A stretch of 64,000 bases of DNA from an uncultured Verrucomicrobiae bacterium. GTDB lineage: Bacteria; Verrucomicrobiota; Verrucomicrobiia; Chthoniobacterales; UBA10450. Each line of letters starts with the position of its first letter. Positions within the stretch are counted from its first letter, which is position 1. Below are positions 2,914 through 11,087 of this stretch, one piece after another. A program made the position numbers and the translations under genes. The stretch is from the NCBI GenBank assembly GCA_963772365.1, contig CAVYXA010000003.1, forward strand, positions 480,001-544,000, in the 5' to 3' direction. The notes under the pieces were generated by a model. That model made no database searches. It worked only from the letters and a program-made list of their open reading frames with translations, and had not been told where the DNA came from.

Positions 2914-3926
2914 TCTTGAGGCCGAGTGATCTGGCCGATGACTTTTCCGGCTTTAATGAGTGCCCGAACTTTCTTGAGCCGATCTGGTTTGACGCACAAT
3001 AGCAAGCCTCCGCTGGTTTGTGCGTCAGTGAGAAGAATGCGTTGGGCGATCGATGTTTTATTCCAATCGGTCACCTTGCTTGCGGCTTGCAGGTTGCCGC
3101 GGGTGCCGCCGGGGATGCAATCGCGGCGAATCAAGTCGAACACGTCGTTGTCGATCGCGGGAACTTCGCTGGCATAGATCTTCGCGCTCGTTTTGCTGGC
3201 TCGACACATTGAAGCGAGATGACCGAGAAGGCCGAAACCAGTGATATCGACAGCCGCGCGAACCAGTCCGCGCTCGGCCAGTTCTGCGCCGATTGAATTC
3301 ACTTGGGTCATTATTGTGATCGTTTTCTTCGCGAGCTGGCGAGAAGTCAGACTGCGTTTGATGCCGGTCGTGACGATTCCGGTGCCGAGAGGCTTTGTCA
3401 GCACGAGCAGATCGCCCGGACGCGCATTGGCATTGGTCATCATTTTCCGTGGATCGACAATTCCAGTAACGGCCAGTCCATAAATCGGCTCTGGATTTCG
3501 AATGGAATGACCGCCGATGATGGCGCAGCCGACTTCGGCAGCTTTTGCGAAACCGCCGCGCAGGATCGAAACGATCGTTTTCTCCGACACGAGATTTTTC
3601 GGGAATCCCATGATGTTAAGTGCGGTGAGCGGGCGACCGCCCATTGCAAACACATCCGAGAGCGCATTAGCGGCGGCGATTTGTCCGTAGGCGAATGGGT
3701 CGTCCACTATCGGCGTGAAAAAATCGACCGTCTGCACGAGCGCGCGATTTCGGTCCAGGCGATAAACGCCGGCATCGTCGAGCGTGCTCGAATTCACGGC
3801 GACGTTTCGGTTTTTCGAAAATGGGAGCTGACGCAAAACTTGCATCAGGGCCGATTGGCTCAGCTTAGAAGCTCAGCCAGCGCAGGATGAAAGCGCGGTG
3901 AGTTTACGGATTTGTTCGCGCGACAT
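2889..3926 (-). CDS. selD: Selenide, water dikinase, selenoprotein form (Sec18)
   Basis: AGGAGG RBS then MSREQIRKLTALSSCAG-UGA(3873-3875)-ASKLSQSALMQVL, continuing in frame into the 2889..3845 ORF; DDAGVY, TVDFFTPIVDDP, DITGFGLLGH, DAQTSGGLL motifs. Confidence 0.95.
3828..3848 (-). promoter_or_regulatory. Putative bacterial SECIS hairpin of selD
   Basis: CUGAUGCAA-GUU-UUGCGUCAG, 9-bp stem; loop begins 33 nt after the UGA. Confidence 0.75.
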
Positions 3927-4007: not shown

Positions 4008-4104
4008 CGGAGAGGATAGGAATCGAACCTACCCCGGTCCGGCGGTTGCCGGATCGACAACGGTTTTGAAGACCGCGAGGGCCACCAGGCACCCTTCACT
4101 CTCC
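4008..4104 (-). tRNA. selC: tRNA-Sec (anticodon UCA)
   Basis: GGAGAGUG acceptor strand, UGGU D-loop, GCGGU-CUUCAAA-ACCGU anticodon arm, long variable arm, GUAGG-UUCGAUU-CCUAU T arm, discriminator G; CCA not encoded. Confidence 0.95.
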
Positions 4105-4112
4105 TGGAAGGA

Positions 4113-4147
4113 AAAAGCTGAAAAGCTGAAAAGCTGAGAAGCTGAAA
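4113..4147. repeat. 8-bp tandem repeat (AAAAGCTG)x4
   Basis: aaaagctg aaaagctg aaaagctg agaagctg aaa, between the Rdx stop and the tRNA 5' end. Confidence 0.9.
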
Positions 4148-4148
4148 T

Positions 4149-4385
4149 TTATTTGAGCTTCTTGATGGCGCTAACGACTTGATCGAAGTCAGGCCAGTCG
4201 CCGGTGTTGAGCTTGGAATGGAGAAGCTTGTCATTGGCGCGAATTTCAAAGGCGCCGCCGCTGGACGGAATCAGGGTGAGCGATTTGATGCGCTCGCCGA
4301 GCTCGAGAATCTGGGTCGCCAAACTGACGGCCTTCGGCGTGTAGTTTCAAACGACGCAGTATTCGATCGAGACCTCGGTCTTCAC
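4149..4385 (-). CDS. Rdx (SelW/SelT/SelH-like) selenoprotein, 78 aa, CxxU
   Basis: GGAAAGGAG RBS, GTG start: MKTEVSIEYCVV-U-NYTPKAVSLATQILELGERIKSLTLIPSSGGAFEIRANDKLLHSKLNTGDWPDFDQVVSAIKKLK; UGA at 4347-4349; IEYCxxU and GGxFEI are Rdx hallmarks. Confidence 0.92.
4314..4332 (-). promoter_or_regulatory. Putative SECIS hairpin of the Rdx gene
   Basis: GGCCGUCA-GUU-UGGCGACC; loop begins 22 nt after the UGA; same AGUUU apex as in selD. Confidence 0.65.
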
Positions 4386-4443: not shown

Positions 4444-4520
4444 ACGGCGGCTGCTCGAATCCTCCCGCCTGCGACAATCCGCCAAGATCGCGACAGTGAA
4501 TGGGAATCGGCAGCCGCCGT
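4444..4520 (-). ncRNA. Conserved structured element, copy 1
   Basis: Outer stem ACGGCGGCUG/CAGCCGCCGU around a 28-nt core (UCGCGAUCUUGGCGGAUUGUCGCAGGCG) identical to copy 2. Confidence 0.55.
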
Positions 4521-4609
4521 TTTACTCGGAGGTTCCCCATGTTGAACCTCAAATTATTCCGATGCTGCGTAGCTACATATTCGTCGTCGATCGGTTTTCG
4601 TTTTCGGAT

Positions 4610-5377
4610 CTAAAAAGCAAAGGTCAGCCCGCTGCGGATCATGGTGAAATTATTCTTCGGTCCATCGATGACGCCCCAGCTCAAGTCGTTTGTCCAACCG
4701 ACGTTGCGAGTAAAGCGATACTCAAGACCTACGCCGAACTGGCCCAGCAGCTTTGTTTCGCCGTCAGAATGATGACTCTGAGCATTTGCGGTTGGAAATT
4801 CGAATAGCAGGCCCGGAAGGGGCCCAGCAGTCACGCTGTCACTTTCACCGCCGCCAAAAATTGCGCCGATACCGGCCCAACCATAAGGAGCGAACCGGCT
4901 ACAGGGCAGCGGATAGCGCAACGTGAACGTGCCCAGCACCGCTCCGATCACTCGCTCGTCATCGACGTTGCGGCCGAAAAAGACTCCATCTAGAGGTCGC
5001 CAATCGATGTCGAAGCTGCGCTTGTGAGCGTTGAGGGCGAATCCTTCAATGCCCACGCCGAAATAACGCTGGAAAAAGTATTTGATGTCGATGCCGCCGC
5101 CCCAGGCGTGATCGTTCCCGATGTATCGGTCGAACGACCCGAGAACGGTCTCGCCTTCGGTTGTGCTTTGGATGAGATCGGGAATGTCGAGGTTGGGATT
5201 GTAATCTGTATTGGTGAAGGTGTAAGTGCCCCAAAGGTTCACCTGAAATTCATTATCGCCGTACCATTCCGGGCAAGGTGGAGATGCTACCGGCTGTTTC
5301 ATTTCATATCCGCCTGCGACAACAAGTTGAAGGCAGCAGAGTTCGAGGATCGACAGCAAAATGATGAGTCGTTTCAT
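4610..5377 (-). CDS. Outer-membrane beta-barrel protein
   Basis: Signal peptide, amphipathic strands (GGGIDIKYFF, APYGWAGIG, GQFGVGLEYRF), C-terminal Phe (GLTFAF). Confidence 0.8.
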   Translation of the reverse strand: MKRLIILLSILELCCLQLVVAGGYEMKQPVASPPCPEWYGDNEFQVNLWGTYTFTNTDYNPNLDIPDLIQSTTEGETVLGSFDRYIGNDHAWGGGIDIKYFFQRYFGVGIEGFALNAHKRSFDIDWRPLDGVFFGRNVDDERVIGAVLGTFTLRYPLPCSRFAPYGWAGIGAIFGGGESDSVTAGPLPGLLFEFPTANAQSHHSDGETKLLGQFGVGLEYRFTRNVGWTNDLSWGVIDGPKNNFTMIRSGLTFAF

Positions 5378-5401
5378 GGGTTTGAAAGAATTAGATTTGG
5401 T

Positions 5402-6367
5402 TTATCGATTACGAGTGGAGACAGGAGCCTCCGTTTCCTCCGCTCCGGCTGGTCCTAGTAATACGGAGAAAACTGCAAATGCCTGGACGCTGGGAGAGTC
5501 GTCAGTGCAGCCGAACAATGGCGACACGTCGATGCGCGTATTGCGCGACGGTTTCCAGGCGACCGTGGGGCCAACTACAAAGCTGTGCTGAGGATCGTCC
5601 CGCGTATTTTTCATCGTGAAATTCTTGTATTGCATTTCCACGCCGACTTTCAGGCGCTCGGCTGACAGCAGAACTGGCGTAACAGCGCTTTGGGCAAATC
5701 CCCATTCACGTCCTCGATCCCCCTGGATTTCCTGTTCGAAAAACCAATTCATTGCCCATTCATAGCGCTGACAGAATTCCTGAGCCAAAAGCAGACGGAC
5801 TTCGTAAGCGTCCGGTTTTTCCGGCGGTCCACCTTCTTCCTCTTCCTCCTCCGCTTCTGCGTCACCTTCTTCCCCTGGAGGTTTGCCTTCCTCGCGACGG
5901 ATCGGACCCGTTCCGAACTTGTATTCGACGAAGAGAGTTGGATTCAGTGGGATTTTGCTCCAGTCAGCCAGAGCGTAGCGGGCTTCAATACTCGCCGTCG
6001 AAGGTCCACCGCCGCCATTGAATCGTTCAAAGGATGATTCGGCGGCGACTCCAAACCGATAAGGAAGACCCATCTCGATTTCCTGTGTGAAAATGTGATC
6101 GGGCGGGCCATCGCAAAAAAAGTCGCCTTCATAGATCTCGCCCACGAAGAACGTCCATGGCGGCAAAACGTAAGCGGTCAGCAGAGGCGAAAAACGTGTC
6201 CGCGAAATTCCGGGTGGAGCCCCATATGCGCTGGGAATGCCTTCCGCGGAGACGACCACCTCTTCGGAAGAGACTTGAGCGTCACTGCGAGAAGAAATCA
6301 GAACCAGCACCAGACCGGGAAGCAACGCACCGAGCAAACGTGCTCGGGAAAAGAGGCATTTAGTCAT
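5402..6367 (-). CDS. Exported, probable beta-barrel protein with acidic loop
   Basis: Signal peptide, EEVVVSA motif, aromatic beta-strand pattern, poly-Glu insert. Confidence 0.65.
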   Translation of the reverse strand: MTKCLFSRARLLGALLPGLVLVLISSRSDAQVSSEEVVVSAEGIPSAYGAPPGISRTRFSPLLTAYVLPPWTFFVGEIYEGDFFCDGPPDHIFTQEIEMGLPYRFGVAAESSFERFNGGGGPSTASIEARYALADWSKIPLNPTLFVEYKFGTGPIRREEGKPPGEEGDAEAEEEEEEGGPPEKPDAYEVRLLLAQEFCQRYEWAMNWFFEQEIQGDRGREWGFAQSAVTPVLLSAERLKVGVEMQYKNFTMKNTRDDPQHSFVVGPTVAWKPSRNTRIDVSPLFGCTDDSPSVQAFAVFSVLLGPAGAEETEAPVSTRNR

Positions 6368-6524
6368 AAGGGGTAAGGCTTTCGTTTATTCAAAGATTGG
6401 ACCTGCGGCAGATTATTACAAATCTGTAATGTTTAGCAAGCATTTTCGCATGCCGGGAATCCTGCTTTGCTTTGGCCTTGATAACGCCTTTTGGATTTGC
6501 TAATGCTGTAACCAAGAACGACAA

Positions 6525-6620
6525 AGAACACCGGCGGCCGCCCGACTTCTCTCGCCTGCGACAATCCGCCAAGATCGCGAAGCTGTAGGAGATTCGAGTT
6601 CGGCCGCCGTTTGGTGTTCT
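6525..6620 (-). ncRNA. Conserved structured element, copy 2
   Basis: Outer stem CGGCGGCCG/CGGCCGCCG extended by AGAACACC/GGUGUUCU; same 28-nt core as copy 1. Confidence 0.55.
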
Positions 6621-6657: not shown

Positions 6658-9000
6658 TTAAAATTCCACTGACACCCCGCCGTAACCCGAGATACGTGGC
6701 GCTGGTTCGATGCTCCCGTTGAAAAAGACGCGCGAGTAATATTTTTCGTCGGTCAGGTTAGAAATTCCGGCAATCAAACGGGCGTGTTTGGTAAAGTACC
6801 ATTCGCCGGAAAGATTGAGCACCTTGTAATCATCGAGTTTGGCCGGCGTGACTCCAGTCGGAGTAATAGCCGGCGTGTTTGCATCCGACCAAAATTGTTC
6901 GGTCACGTACACCGCGGAAAGAGTGACATTAAAACAGCGCTCTTTGCCGAAAGTGATTCCGCCTTTCCAAAGTAAATCGGGCGCGAAGGCGGGTGTCTTG
7001 CCAACTTGATCCGGAATCATGCTGTCGGTGAACTCGGCATCGAGAAATTGCACGTTGCTAAAGAAAATCAGGCGCCATGGCCGGAATTCTTCGGCCGAGA
7101 CACCCGGGACCGCTACATTTTTTACATTCTTATCGACAACGTCTTTGCCAGGCTCAGGTAGGGGCGTAGCGACAGGCGGATGCTGATATCGAGCGAGGAA
7201 GTCATAAGAAACCTCGCCTTCGAAACCCCGGTGCCGTGTGCTGCCAGTATTTACGATGATGACTTCAGTGTTACTGATATTTCGGCTCTCCGTGCGGTTA
7301 TCGAATTCCATCCAAAACGCGCCAACATCGTACCAAAAGCCTTGCAATGGTGTTCCATGCACACCGAGCTCAAGATCGAGCGACTCAAACGGGTCGGGAG
7401 CTTGACCCGCCGGCACCGCTCGGGAAGTGCTGGCAATATCGAAGAATCGAACCGGTCGCCACCCGGAAGAAGCACTGAAATAGGTCTCGTTGCGGTCCCC
7501 GAAGTCGTTACCCACACCAACTCCCCACAACGGGATAGTGCGGTCGGCGCTTCGGTTTACCGGCGCGCCCATCACAAACGGCGCGACCTGAGAATCCACT
7601 TCGACATTTTCGTGATCCAGACGGAATGAACCAACGAGGTGGAACTTACCGAGCCGGAAAAGGTTTTCGATAAAGAACGCCTGATAATCAGCGGTGCGGT
7701 CCTGATCCAGGGTTACATCGCTGGTGGTTTCGCCGCGAGGCGCGTCCAAATCCATGCTGCGATAGCGTTGGAACGGTGCATCGCCATGATAAATAAGGCC
7801 GCCAAAGGTCAGTGCACTGCCCTTGAACATGGTTTCTTCACCCCATCTCTTACGTACTCGCGCATCCACGCCGCCGTTGTTAAACGCTTCGTAACCCAGT
7901 GTAGTCGAGGTGGGAAACGCGCCGGTAATGGGATCAATGTTCGCGGCTGTGCGTGAGTCGATGTCCTGATGCGTGAACCAGCCTTTTACTTGAAGTAGCC
8001 AGCCGTCGCCGAGGTCATGTTCGTGTCGCAACACCGTGGTGTAGCGATCAACCCAATTATGATTGTAAGGCGTAGTGGAAATGCTGGGATCTCCCCAGAA
8101 CTGCTGAAAAGTCAGCCGTCCCGGATCGCCGCCATCGAATCGACTGAGGTGAAAATCCAAAGCGGTCAGTTGGGTCTCATCTGGGCGATAGCCCACATAC
8201 AGGTTCGATTGCCACAGATCATATTGGCTGTTATCGCGCTGGCCATCCGTGCGAACGTAGCCTTCATCGAGGCGAAATTCCACCGGACCGACCGCCTCCT
8301 GGACCACGTTATAAGTTGAATAAAGTCCGTAAGCGCCGCCGATTTGCTCGGTATAGAAATCCCAGGGAGATCCAGGAGCCGGATGTTTCATGACATAGTT
8401 CACTGCGGGTGCCGGCTCAGGTCCATAAATCAAACTGCTGCCGCCACGGATGAGTTGAATCTCGCTCACACTTTGCGGTAGAGGCAGATAGTAAAGCGTG
8501 GGAAAACCGATCCAATCACTCATCAGCGGTAATCCATCCTGCAAAACGAGGATGAATTCCGATTCCTGCGGATTACCAAGACCGCGATAGCTGAAATTAA
8601 ACTGTCCGGGATTATGCTGCTCGGTGATCAGAAGCCCGGGCGCTTTGGTGAATTCTTCCTGCAAGTTATTGTTTTCAAGCGGTGGCTGTTGCTCGAGTTT
8701 AATCGTTGTCGCTTTTTTCGTGACGGTGATCTGGGTCCCCGAAATCTCGGGCATCATGTGTTGGCGCATCTCGCGCCAATTATCGTGAGGCGTAGGTGAG
8801 GGAACGGCTTCGCCTGTGACAACGATCTCTTCTGCACCGGCAGGCGCTTGCGCCGCAGCGCGGTTTGAACTCAATAAATTAAAGACAGCGCATGAGACCA
8901 AAAGAAGCCATGCAGCCGCATCAAAAGAAGACCTAGAAATCAGTATGGCCCGATCATTACAAAATTGCAACGAATCGGGCAGGAGAAAACTTTTACCCAA
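6658..9000 (-). CDS. TonB-dependent receptor (start uncertain)
   Basis: TonB box EEIVVTG, plug motif IQLIRGGSSLIYG, C-terminal NLTDEKYY...GGVSVEF. Confidence 0.92.
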   Translation of the reverse strand: MGKSFLLPDSLQFCNDRAILISRSSFDAAAWLLLVSCAVFNLLSSNRAAAQAPAGAEEIVVTGEAVPSPTPHDNWREMRQHMMPEISGTQITVTKKATTIKLEQQPPLENNNLQEEFTKAPGLLITEQHNPGQFNFSYRGLGNPQESEFILVLQDGLPLMSDWIGFPTLYYLPLPQSVSEIQLIRGGSSLIYGPEPAPAVNYVMKHPAPGSPWDFYTEQIGGAYGLYSTYNVVQEAVGPVEFRLDEGYVRTDGQRDNSQYDLWQSNLYVGYRPDETQLTALDFHLSRFDGGDPGRLTFQQFWGDPSISTTPYNHNWVDRYTTVLRHEHDLGDGWLLQVKGWFTHQDIDSRTAANIDPITGAFPTSTTLGYEAFNNGGVDARVRKRWGEETMFKGSALTFGGLIYHGDAPFQRYRSMDLDAPRGETTSDVTLDQDRTADYQAFFIENLFRLGKFHLVGSFRLDHENVEVDSQVAPFVMGAPVNRSADRTIPLWGVGVGNDFGDRNETYFSASSGWRPVRFFDIASTSRAVPAGQAPDPFESLDLELGVHGTPLQGFWYDVGAFWMEFDNRTESRNISNTEVIIVNTGSTRHRGFEGEVSYDFLARYQHPPVATPLPEPGKDVVDKNVKNVAVPGVSAEEFRPWRLIFFSNVQFLDAEFTDSMIPDQVGKTPAFAPDLLWKGGITFGKERCFNVTLSAVYVTEQFWSDANTPAITPTGVTPAKLDDYKVLNLSGEWYFTKHARLIAGISNLTDEKYYSRVFFNGSIEPAPRISGYGGVSVEF

Positions 9001-9043: not shown

Positions 9044-10435
9044 CTACGCCTGATTTGGCAATGACAACGTGACAGTTGTGCCGCGGCCGATCTCACTTTG
9101 GATATCGGCCGACCCATGGTGAAGATCGACAATCGATTTGACTAGTGACAGGCCGAGACCTGTGCCGCCGGAGCTGCGAGATGGATCGGCGCGATAAAAT
9201 CTATCGAAGACTCGCGGCAGATCTTCGGCTGAAATACCGCTGCCATTGTCGCTGACCGTGACAACGGATTTATCGGCACCGGCTGCAACGACGATTTGAA
9301 TGGCGCCGCCATTCGGCGTAAACCGCAACGCGTTATCCACGAGATTACTCACGGCGCGTTCAAACAGAACCGGATCAGCGAAAAAGTTGGCCTGGCCGCT
9401 GCATTGGATATTGATATGTCGATCTTCCGCGAGCGTTCGATAAAAAGCGGCGATCTTTTCGACAGCCATTCTCCCATCGAATTCCTTTTTTTGGGAAGGC
9501 TCGCGAGCCGCATCGGCTCGGGCAACAAACAGCAAATTATCTACGATTCCGGAGAGCCGCTCGCATTCTGCGATCATTGACTCGATGACTTCCCGGTACT
9601 CACTGGGAGAACGGTCGCGGGTCATCGTGACCTGCGCTTCGCCAAGGATATTCGCGAGCGGTGTACGTAGTTCGTGAGCAAGGTCGGCCGAGAACTGCGA
9701 GAGCCGGGTAAAGGATTGTTCCAGTCGATCGAGCATGCGATCGAAGGCATTGGCCAGTGGTTGAAGCTCGCGGGGCCAGCCGACCGGTGCGACCCGTTCA
9801 TCGAGATGAGTCGGCCCGATACGTTCCACGGAACGGGTCATTTCACCTAACGGATGCAGGCCGCGCTTTGTGACGGTAACAGCAACGAGAGCAGAAGCAG
9901 CAATGCCGCCCATCAGAACAATCAGGAGCAAGGCTCCGACTTCGATCTCGAGATCTTTGTCGCTGGAACGGTCCTGCGCGATTTGAAGGGTGTATTTCCC
10001 GCCAGCAGAGTCTTCATTGACTGTCACGAGCGAAAATAATCTTCCATGTCCCCTATAGTTCTTTGGAGCGCGAATAGCTGATGTCGACTTCGCCGGAAGT
10101 GGAAAAATGTTGCTGGGAGTGAACTGATTCATTCCGGGTGTCTCGGCGATTGTTTGACCGGTCGAATCGATAACTCGTATCCAGTAAGGCGTGTGCTGAC
10201 CTGCTCGATGAGCATTAACTTCTTCACTGAAGGCGCGCGGGCTACCTTCTGCGAAGTCAGCGCGCAGAGCCGTTACCTTGTCGATAAAGACGAGGTTGTC
10301 TTCGGCAAAGGCGTGGCGGATGACGATCCAGTAGAAAATACCGAGACCGCAGGAGAGAAGAAGAGCGGCAGAAACCGTAAAACGCAGGACGAGCCGCGAG
10401 GCGATGGAGCGCGCCCTAATGTGCTTTGAGGACAT
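9044..10435 (-). CDS. Heavy-metal sensor histidine kinase (CusS/CzcS-like)
   Basis: Two TM segments, HAMP, FSADLAHELRTP H-box, DNGSGI and GTGLGL; likely start MSSKH at 10435. Confidence 0.9.
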   Translation of the reverse strand: MSSKHIRARSIASRLVLRFTVSAALLLSCGLGIFYWIVIRHAFAEDNLVFIDKVTALRADFAEGSPRAFSEEVNAHRAGQHTPYWIRVIDSTGQTIAETPGMNQFTPSNIFPLPAKSTSAIRAPKNYRGHGRLFSLVTVNEDSAGGKYTLQIAQDRSSDKDLEIEVGALLLIVLMGGIAASALVAVTVTKRGLHPLGEMTRSVERIGPTHLDERVAPVGWPRELQPLANAFDRMLDRLEQSFTRLSQFSADLAHELRTPLANILGEAQVTMTRDRSPSEYREVIESMIAECERLSGIVDNLLFVARADAAREPSQKKEFDGRMAVEKIAAFYRTLAEDRHINIQCSGQANFFADPVLFERAVSNLVDNALRFTPNGGAIQIVVAAGADKSVVTVSDNGSGISAEDLPRVFDRFYRADPSRSSGGTGLGLSLVKSIVDLHHGSADIQSEIGRGTTVTLSLPNQA

Positions 10436-11087
10436 AACCCACGCCGCGAATGGTGTGGACCAGCTTGGTTTTGAACGGGTCGTCCACCTTGGCCCGCAAC
10501 CGTCGCACGACGACGTCCACCACGTTGGTGTCGGTCTTAAACCCGATGTCCCAAACGTGTTCGGCGATTTCTGTGCGGGAGACGACTTCGCCTGCAGAAC
10601 GAACCAGGTGTGCAAGTAACTTAAACTCCTTCGGTGTGAGATTGAGCGGAACTCCGGAACGAACCGCCGTATGCCGTTTTAAATCGAGGTCCAGATCGTC
10701 AATGCGCAGGTGGTCTTCCATTTGGGCAGGCGCGCGGCGCAACAGGGATCGGATCCGGGCCAGCAGTTCGGAAAAAGCGAACGGCTTAACGAGATAGTCG
10801 TCCGCGCCCAGCTCAAGACCCTTCACCCGGTCACGCACGCTGTCTCGAGCGGTGAGAAAGAGAATGGGTGTGCGGGATCCTTGCTGTCGTAGCTCTGACA
10901 CCACGGCCCAGCCATCCTTTTTTGGCAGCATGACATCGACAATGAGCAGCTCGAATTTTGTGGCGTTCGCGATTTGCAACGCTTCTTCGCCATCGTGCGC
11001 AAGATCGACATCAAAGCCGGCTTCGCGCAATCCTTTGGTGAGAAAAGCCGCCGTTTTCTTTTCGTCCTCGACCACTAAGACTCGCAT
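10416..11087 (-). CDS. Heavy-metal response regulator (CusR/CzcR-like, OmpR family)
   Basis: VVEDE, DVMLP, GADDYLVKPF, TNVVDV, HTIRGVGY. Confidence 0.92.
   Translation of the reverse strand: MRVLVVEDEKKTAAFLTKGLREAGFDVDLAHDGEEALQIANATKFELLIVDVMLPKKDGWAVVSELRQQGSRTPILFLTARDSVRDRVKGLELGADDYLVKPFAFSELLARIRSLLRRAPAQMEDHLRIDDLDLDLKRHTAVRSGVPLNLTPKEFKLLAHLVRSAGEVVSRTEIAEHVWDIGFKTDTNVVDVVVRRLRAKVDDPFKTKLVHTIRGVGYVLKAH

Follow-up and report, generated by a model that had tools for sequence, protein, structure and literature searches.

Chthoniobacterales are abundant soil bacteria, and literature searches, mostly of open-access papers and limited to top-ranked matches, returned no small RNA described from this order and none under the control of a CusR-type regulator. 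The described RNAs that come closest to the element reported here are OmrA and OmrB, which are controlled by a two-component system, the 3' UTR-derived sRNAs such as CpxQ and MicL, the iron-sparing RyhB and PrrF1-PrrF2, and the protein-sequestering CsrB, RsmY and RsmZ. OmrA and OmrB are described as a pair of paralogous sRNAs whose repressed targets include outer-membrane receptors, among them FepA (PMC11979758), and OppZ and CarZ as sRNAs derived from 3' UTRs (PMC7398697); the main text of PMC8632094 makes no mention of Verrucomicrobia, copper, TonB or selenocysteine. Here we describe a long hairpin, present twice in a Verrucomicrobiae genome, that is a real, narrowly distributed candidate small RNA family lying outside every family tested, and that by analogy would work most like OmrA/OmrB or the 3' UTR-derived sRNAs.

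The window, i.e. the whole stretch of 64,000 nucleotides that was analysed, belongs to the genome labelled G000; other genomes have G labels and loci or contigs have L labels. On its minus strand the window holds, in this order, genes for DsbA, VKOR, a response regulator, a sensor kinase and a TonB-dependent receptor, hairpin copy 2, genes for a barrel channel and a PF13505 barrel, copy 1, and then an Rdx selenoprotein gene, tRNA-Sec, a gene for a Sec-containing SelD and one for SelA. The features are as follows.

9044..11087, minus strand: response regulator and sensor kinase of the heavy-metal type, which score above cut-off for TIGR01387 and TIGR01386, respectively
8953..8982, minus strand: predicted TonB-receptor promoter, with a degenerate box at 8956-8971; its transcript would end in copy 2
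6658..9000, minus strand: TonB-dependent receptor
6532..6610, minus strand: copy 2 of the long hairpin, with flanks that extend the pairing to 6525-6620
6553..6580, minus strand: 28-nt core of copy 2
6412..6439, minus strand: predicted promoter of the channel-porin operon, with a box at 6415-6430 between the -35 and -10 matches
5402..6367, minus strand: outer-membrane beta-barrel channel with a FapF/COG4313-like fold (PF13557 in some homologues)
4610..5377, minus strand: outer-membrane beta-barrel protein (porin), PF13505
4529..4550, minus strand: additional hairpin on the 5' side of copy 1, its loop reading CAUGGG, outside the element as originally delimited
4444..4520, minus strand: copy 1 of the long hairpin, with a GC-rich basal stem, a variable middle and a conserved apex
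4466..4493, minus strand: 28-nt core of copy 1, with an apical U(G/A)GC loop
4434..4443, minus strand: stretch behind the copy 1 stem that has 4 U in 8 nt and would make a weak terminator tail
4149..4385, minus strand: Rdx/SelW selenoprotein (CVVU; UGA at 4349-4347), with its own promoter at 4435-4407
4009..4104, minus strand: tRNA-Sec, the sole Rfam match above gathering score
2889-3926, minus strand: selD, with its start at 3926 and an in-frame UGA at 3875-3873 (SCAG-U-ASK)

The original prediction, made from the letters of this stretch, had described an identical core within diverging but compensated flanking stems. Both points held: exact identity between the two elements extends over 28 nt at most (4466-4493 and 6553-6580), the basal stems pair as claimed, and a U-A pair is changed to C-G in copy 2. 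Its statement that the core hairpin folds only on the minus strand needed narrowing; the apex GCGAUCU/GGAUUGU does contain three G.U pairs, but the complete element can fold on the plus strand as well, so that strand-specificity is confined to the G.U-rich apex. Folding z-scores were -4.9 (copy 1) and -4.6 (copy 2) on the minus strand, with none of 200 shuffles equally stable, and -4.1 and -2.8, respectively, on the plus strand; two of nine homologous hairpins had the better fold on the opposite strand. Throughout the 3.35-Mb G000 the core occurred only at these two places at up to six mismatches, and a covariance model gave two real matches, besides the reverse strand of copy 1 and one match with E=0.2. 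Flavo-1 and Acido-Lenti-1, which the apex had been thought to recall, are Rfam families, and this resemblance was not borne out by a search of all 4227 models of Rfam 15, which at E<=10 gave only a chance snoRNA match; neither at gathering score nor with the E<=10 limit did any family match the element, nothing relevant appeared at six related loci, and the weak matches belonged to unrelated families. The suggestion of an orphan non-coding RNA was supported by the missing Rfam match, by strong sequence conservation, by a locus and an orientation that do not vary, and by substitutions that preserve G.U pairing.

In the window, copy 1 stands at the 3' end of the channel-porin operon and copy 2 at the 3' end of the TonB-receptor gene, and neither has a box of its own. 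The genes upstream of the hairpins end in TAG and TAA, and the Sec codons lie downstream behind another promoter, an arrangement that does not fit a SECIS element. This predicted promoter downstream of copy 1 (TTGACC-17-TACCAT, 4435-4407) drives first the Rdx gene, the head of the sel operon, and then tRNA-Sec; the original doubt that copy 1 is a sel riboswitch is supported. The Rdx/SelW gene had been absent from the list of open reading frames because of its in-frame UGA, and the selD frame listed there, starting at 3845, is truncated. Three tandem 8-nt repeats lie between the Rdx stop codon and tRNA-Sec (4113-4144). Within the porin signal-peptide codons, 5310-5322 matches the 3' part of the core exactly over 13 nt in the same sense; the G054 porin showed no such match, and it is probably due to chance. 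Shine-Dalgarno-like words precede only ~10% of 1105 crudely called G000 starts.

The predicted promoters of the channel-porin operon and of the TonB receptor share a box with the consensus ATTACA-N4-TGTAAT, which equals the published CusR/HprR box (PMC9302797; bioRxiv 2021.09.09.459708) and also the LciR site (PMC6989116). Since CusR and HprR share one box, copper and an oxidant are both possible signals. We infer that the CusRS-type regulator/sensor pair controls the boxes of the cluster. The true start of the TonB receptor is probably downstream of 8950. Its plug contains H-x-M, as do all 14 TonB-receptor N-terminal segments compared, and an HxM motif is described as used for copper in OprC (PMC8610252); the receptor was rejected as an OprC member (19.6 bits vs a cut-off of 472), and copper is for this reason only an inference for the cluster.

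The box lies inside the core promoter, just behind a -35-like TTG(C/T)N, which suggests repression. Of 47 channel promoters, 34 have a TTG[CT][CAT] word at a distance of 4-13 nt upstream of the box, as do all four TonB-receptor promoters, against a background of 3.4%; the -10 assignment is weak, nAT following the box in 21 of the 47 channel promoters and in none of the four TonB-receptor promoters. Judged by this promoter layout, the sign of control would be repression, and the published CusR and LciR boxes, as described in PMC9302797 and PMC6989116, are activating, not repressing. A family of small secreted-protein genes has the box upstream of a TTGAC-like word, unlike the channel and receptor promoters, and G000 encodes two paralogous members of 138 and 146 aa with two Cys (C3:22634-23150 and near C3:681140); these genes are likely the activated arm of the box regulon.

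To find homologues of the window's element (hereafter type A), we used BLAST and a covariance model on genomes and a pattern scan on metagenome contigs. BLAST and the covariance model identified it in five other genomes of the family (G012, G032, G053, G054 and G071), and three of 15 pattern matches in metagenome contigs proved to be the element (L050, L054 and L059), giving 10 instances, both window copies included, in about six lineages. The covariance model matched seven of 150 family genomes, one of them falsely, which left six real carriers. It matched both genomes in each of two genera and two of three in a third. It found no real type A site in 149 further genomes across the order; G002, G007, G155 and G172 enter the family-search tallies only. 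Weak model matches in G042 (a short terminator) and in G262 (inside coding-like sequence) were discarded as false. In a pattern scan of genome contigs, 4/20 matches were the element, all of them known instances, and the other 16 were not. All 10 instances lie in the same cluster and in the same orientation, no real type A match occurred outside the cluster in the carrier genomes, and five carriers had no second core site at up to three mismatches. The channel gene is present in 161 of 201 family genomes, against few type A carriers; most loci work without the element. On a quick, preliminary tree of the channel protein, carriers were scattered over at least three places.

Conservation was concentrated in the apex and the basal arms. 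A core of 23-25 nt is identical in G000, G054, G032 and L059, and the basal arms are nearly invariant across nine aligned instances, despite an identity to the window of only 0.39-0.47 at four-fold sites of the neighbouring genes, which indicates strong selection on the sequence. The G012 element keeps the arms and has its apex reduced to UUUAGUGGAUU, leaving RGYGGAU as the common motif. Covariation was counted on nine sequences in an alignment fitted to the covariance model, in which 95.5% of the cells paired and 13 of 28 pairs were invariant. Two-sided change affected four of the 28 pairs (reached by 28 of 500 shuffles) and eight cells (reached by 1/500), and a MAFFT alignment likewise gave 4/28 pairs. 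The G053 apex has two adjacent substitutions, one from C-G to U.G and one from U.G to C-G, that leave the stem intact. Thus, the hairpin is supported and covariation is weak. No reading frame was conserved across the instances.

The surroundings of the element differ between the window and its relatives. In 7/10 instances, the window copies not among them, a box promoter stands just upstream of the element with no intact gene between. The G012 element is orthologous to copy 1 and that of L059 to copy 2; both have a perfect box promoter that adjoins the 5' hairpin, at a distance of ~35-50 nt from the basal stem, and the genes upstream of this promoter are intact. The other five (G032, G053, G071, L050 and L054) lack the TonB-receptor gene and keep box and element, the element lying ~100 nt after the box. 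In G053, G071, L050 and L054, a remnant of TonB-receptor C-terminal codons can be read directly between box and hairpin, and in G053 and G071 this remnant marks the stand-alone state as the scar of a deletion. The loop of the 5' hairpin reads CAUGGG in five instances (copy 1, G012, G054, G032 and L059) and CAUUGGG in four (G071, G053, L050 and L054), and copy 2 has no such hairpin. Seven instances would thus give short stand-alone transcripts, as predicted from their promoters, and three (both window copies and G054) mRNA 3' ends. The original description as a 3' element therefore stands for G000 and G054, but not for the other seven, in which the box promoter precedes the element. The next gene downstream has its own predicted promoter in every case, which argues against a leader and took away the ground for a regulated terminator.

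A parallel came from the genus labelled g10, in which a different two-hairpin element (type B) occupies the type A slots, one between a box promoter and the channel gene, the other following the porin. It occurs in 11 of 13 genomes of this genus, mostly in two or three strong copies, carries the motifs UGAAGUGGA and UGGAG, and was located at L047 (647-742 and the 2682-2780 region), L038, L040, L041, L044, L046, L100, L103, L106, L187 and L190-L192. The TTG[CT][CAT] word precedes the box in 7/8 type B promoters and in both of the nearest type A promoters (background 3.4%). G139 and G076 have type B behind a box promoter also outside the cluster, with the UGAAGUGGA motif tandemly doubled; it is oriented divergently to members of the small gene family found next to type A in G032, as judged from inspected translations. 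Homology between the two types was not shown: model R2 gave no match on any type A element, and model R1 matched only the type B stem (E 0.01-0.9). The RGYGGA word common to both is short and, as a sequence likeness, only suggestive. The parallel supports a regulon that carries a small RNA, and type B, which is better sampled than type A, is a candidate box-driven RNA that deserves its own study. Further lineage-specific hairpins were seen in this slot, at L101, where an element without an open reading frame follows two tandem boxes (4764-4900, oriented), and before the Rdx gene at L020, L021, L023, L029, L035, L102 and L153.

Searches for partners of the RNA were negative. A G000 target scan for type A, on crude gene starts, gave a best non-self duplex of -43.0, within the range of shuffles (mean -40.6, lowest -44.6), and copper-protein genes ranked 607-2872 of 3315 as targets in this genome. 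No shared pairing site was found within the cluster or in the element's own operon, and for the type B seed complement, a comparison of 50 of the 51 non-self sites, which covered three of five genomes, gave one shared pair without obvious target context. Hfq (PF17209) was not found in G000, which is 90% complete, and CsrA (PF02599) was found in none of six genomes (G000 and five relatives). The apex, with an opening cost of ~5 kcal/mol, is the most accessible conserved part. Six of the 15 metagenome pattern matches (L052, L056-L058, L060 and L061) were codons for RDLGGFVA in CzcA/CusA-type efflux pumps of other organisms; we treated this as a coincidence rather than as mimicry or antisense, the motif being absent from the G000 pumps.

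Taken together, we lean towards the hairpins being a family of small non-coding RNAs that belongs with the neighbouring CusR/HprR-type regulon and acts in trans through the apex; a small regulatory RNA is likely because the relatives carry the hairpin behind a predicted promoter with no gene between. The response regulator would bind the ATTACA-N4-TGTAAT boxes at the promoters of the RNA, the TonB receptor and the channel, and would repress when active, so that low levels of the signal, probably copper and possibly an oxidant, would lead to joint expression of the RNA and the uptake genes. The relatives would make the RNA as a primary transcript of ~115-190 nt from its own promoter, and in G000 the TonB-receptor mRNA and the channel-porin mRNA would each end in one of the copies, to be processed out or to act while attached. 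The basal stem would end and protect the RNA, and the G.U-rich apex with its RGYGGAU motif would be the working part. It may bind a protein, a tentative suggestion, and pairing with an mRNA is a little more doubtful still; we slightly prefer protein binding because both strands of the stem are conserved in sequence, no conserved complementary site was found and the target searches were negative.

In the main alternative, the same hairpins would act in cis, as the 3' ends (intrinsic terminators or nuclease barriers) of box-controlled mRNAs, the stand-alone cases being deletion scars. This is a possible, if rather doubtful, account: it agrees with the position of both window copies 3' of genes, with the TonB-receptor remnant between box and hairpin in G053 and G071, with the other long hairpins that other genera carry after the porin, and with a GC-rich stem that has 4-6 U among the 8 nt behind it; a simple scan for terminators did not pick up the long hairpin. 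Yet these U tails are weak, an invariant apex of 23-28 nt at 30 nt from the stem is nothing that a terminator requires, and G012 and L059 combine intact upstream genes with a second box promoter at two different positions. A metal- or ligand-sensing leader, an attenuator or riboswitch that controls whether transcription continues into the channel gene or, respectively, the Rdx-sel operon, would account for an element that is always upstream of the channel or Rdx gene, often behind a promoter, and for a conserved apex with an internal bulge. We regard it as unlikely, given the predicted promoter between the element and each downstream gene and, in G053 and G071, a gap of up to ~300 nt before the next gene; neither a true leader position nor an expression platform was seen, and no competing structure that would disrupt the basal stem was observed.

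Two further readings concern the DNA itself and a coding function. Random orientation had been named in the original prediction as a mark of a DNA repeat, and a REP-like or small mobile palindrome would suit the sequence-invariant inverted arms, the patchy distribution and the richness of G000 in REP-like repeats, of which several abundant palindrome families are spread genome-wide. This explanation is largely refuted and a little less probable even than a leader: there are two copies only, in one cluster, rather than many in either orientation, the constant cluster and orientation of all 10 instances speak against a mobile repeat, none of the abundant G000 repeats matched, and the wobble-type changes fit one strand. 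Least probable of all is a short leader frame starting at the AUG of the 5' hairpin loop, a pattern spotted after the fact, in which the distance from AUG to core is a multiple of three in all five cases (48, 48, 48, 51 and 54 nt) and GAGG or AAGG lies 6-9 nt upstream of the AUG in four of the five. Against it, the AUG is missing from five instances, the basal stem is not read in one and the same frame throughout, the frame stops after nine codons in G012 and G032, the core carries a 1-nt insertion in G071 and L050, and it does not show variation of a synonymous type.

As a small RNA family, the element resembles OmrA/OmrB in forming two paralogous RNAs with common conserved segments and, as predicted here, in belonging to a two-component regulon for outer-membrane proteins. 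It is a conserved non-coding sequence with a 3' hairpin, and a regulator box promoter stands directly upstream without an open reading frame in seven of the 10 instances, the window copies being the 3'-end cases. It differs in having no sequence or Rfam match, in a host in which no Hfq was found, as an Hfq-dependent sRNA would require, and in presenting a conserved hairpin apex rather than a single-stranded 5' seed. Like the 3' UTR-derived sRNAs, its RNA would share a 3' end with an envelope or transport mRNA; unlike OppZ and CarZ, type A occurs both as a 3' end (G000) and behind its own promoter (relatives), and no pairing with its own operon was found. With RyhB and PrrF it would share duplicated RNAs co-regulated with metal-uptake genes and, if the box represses, expression at metal scarcity, although the regulator is of the CusR/HprR type rather than Fur and no pairing with metalloprotein mRNAs was detected. 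A small RNA under predicted two-component control with GGA motifs, clearest in type B, also recalls CsrB, RsmY and RsmZ, but CsrA was found in none of the six genomes, and type A has a single GGA motif, paired in the predicted fold, instead of motifs repeated in loops.

If real, the family would offer a defined RNA, promoter box and regulator for studying RNA regulation in a lineage in which neither Hfq nor CsrA was found. At its most far-reaching, and here we speculate on a reading that we think improbable, it would be an RNA that soil Verrucomicrobia make under copper limitation and that does for copper what RyhB/PrrF do for iron, set by CusR-type repression, working without Hfq or CsrA through an RNA-binding protein that reads RGYGGA, with types A and B, which look unrelated, filling the same slot of the regulon in different genera. 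As a narrow and well-anchored candidate, it may be an RNA arm of bacterial copper homeostasis.
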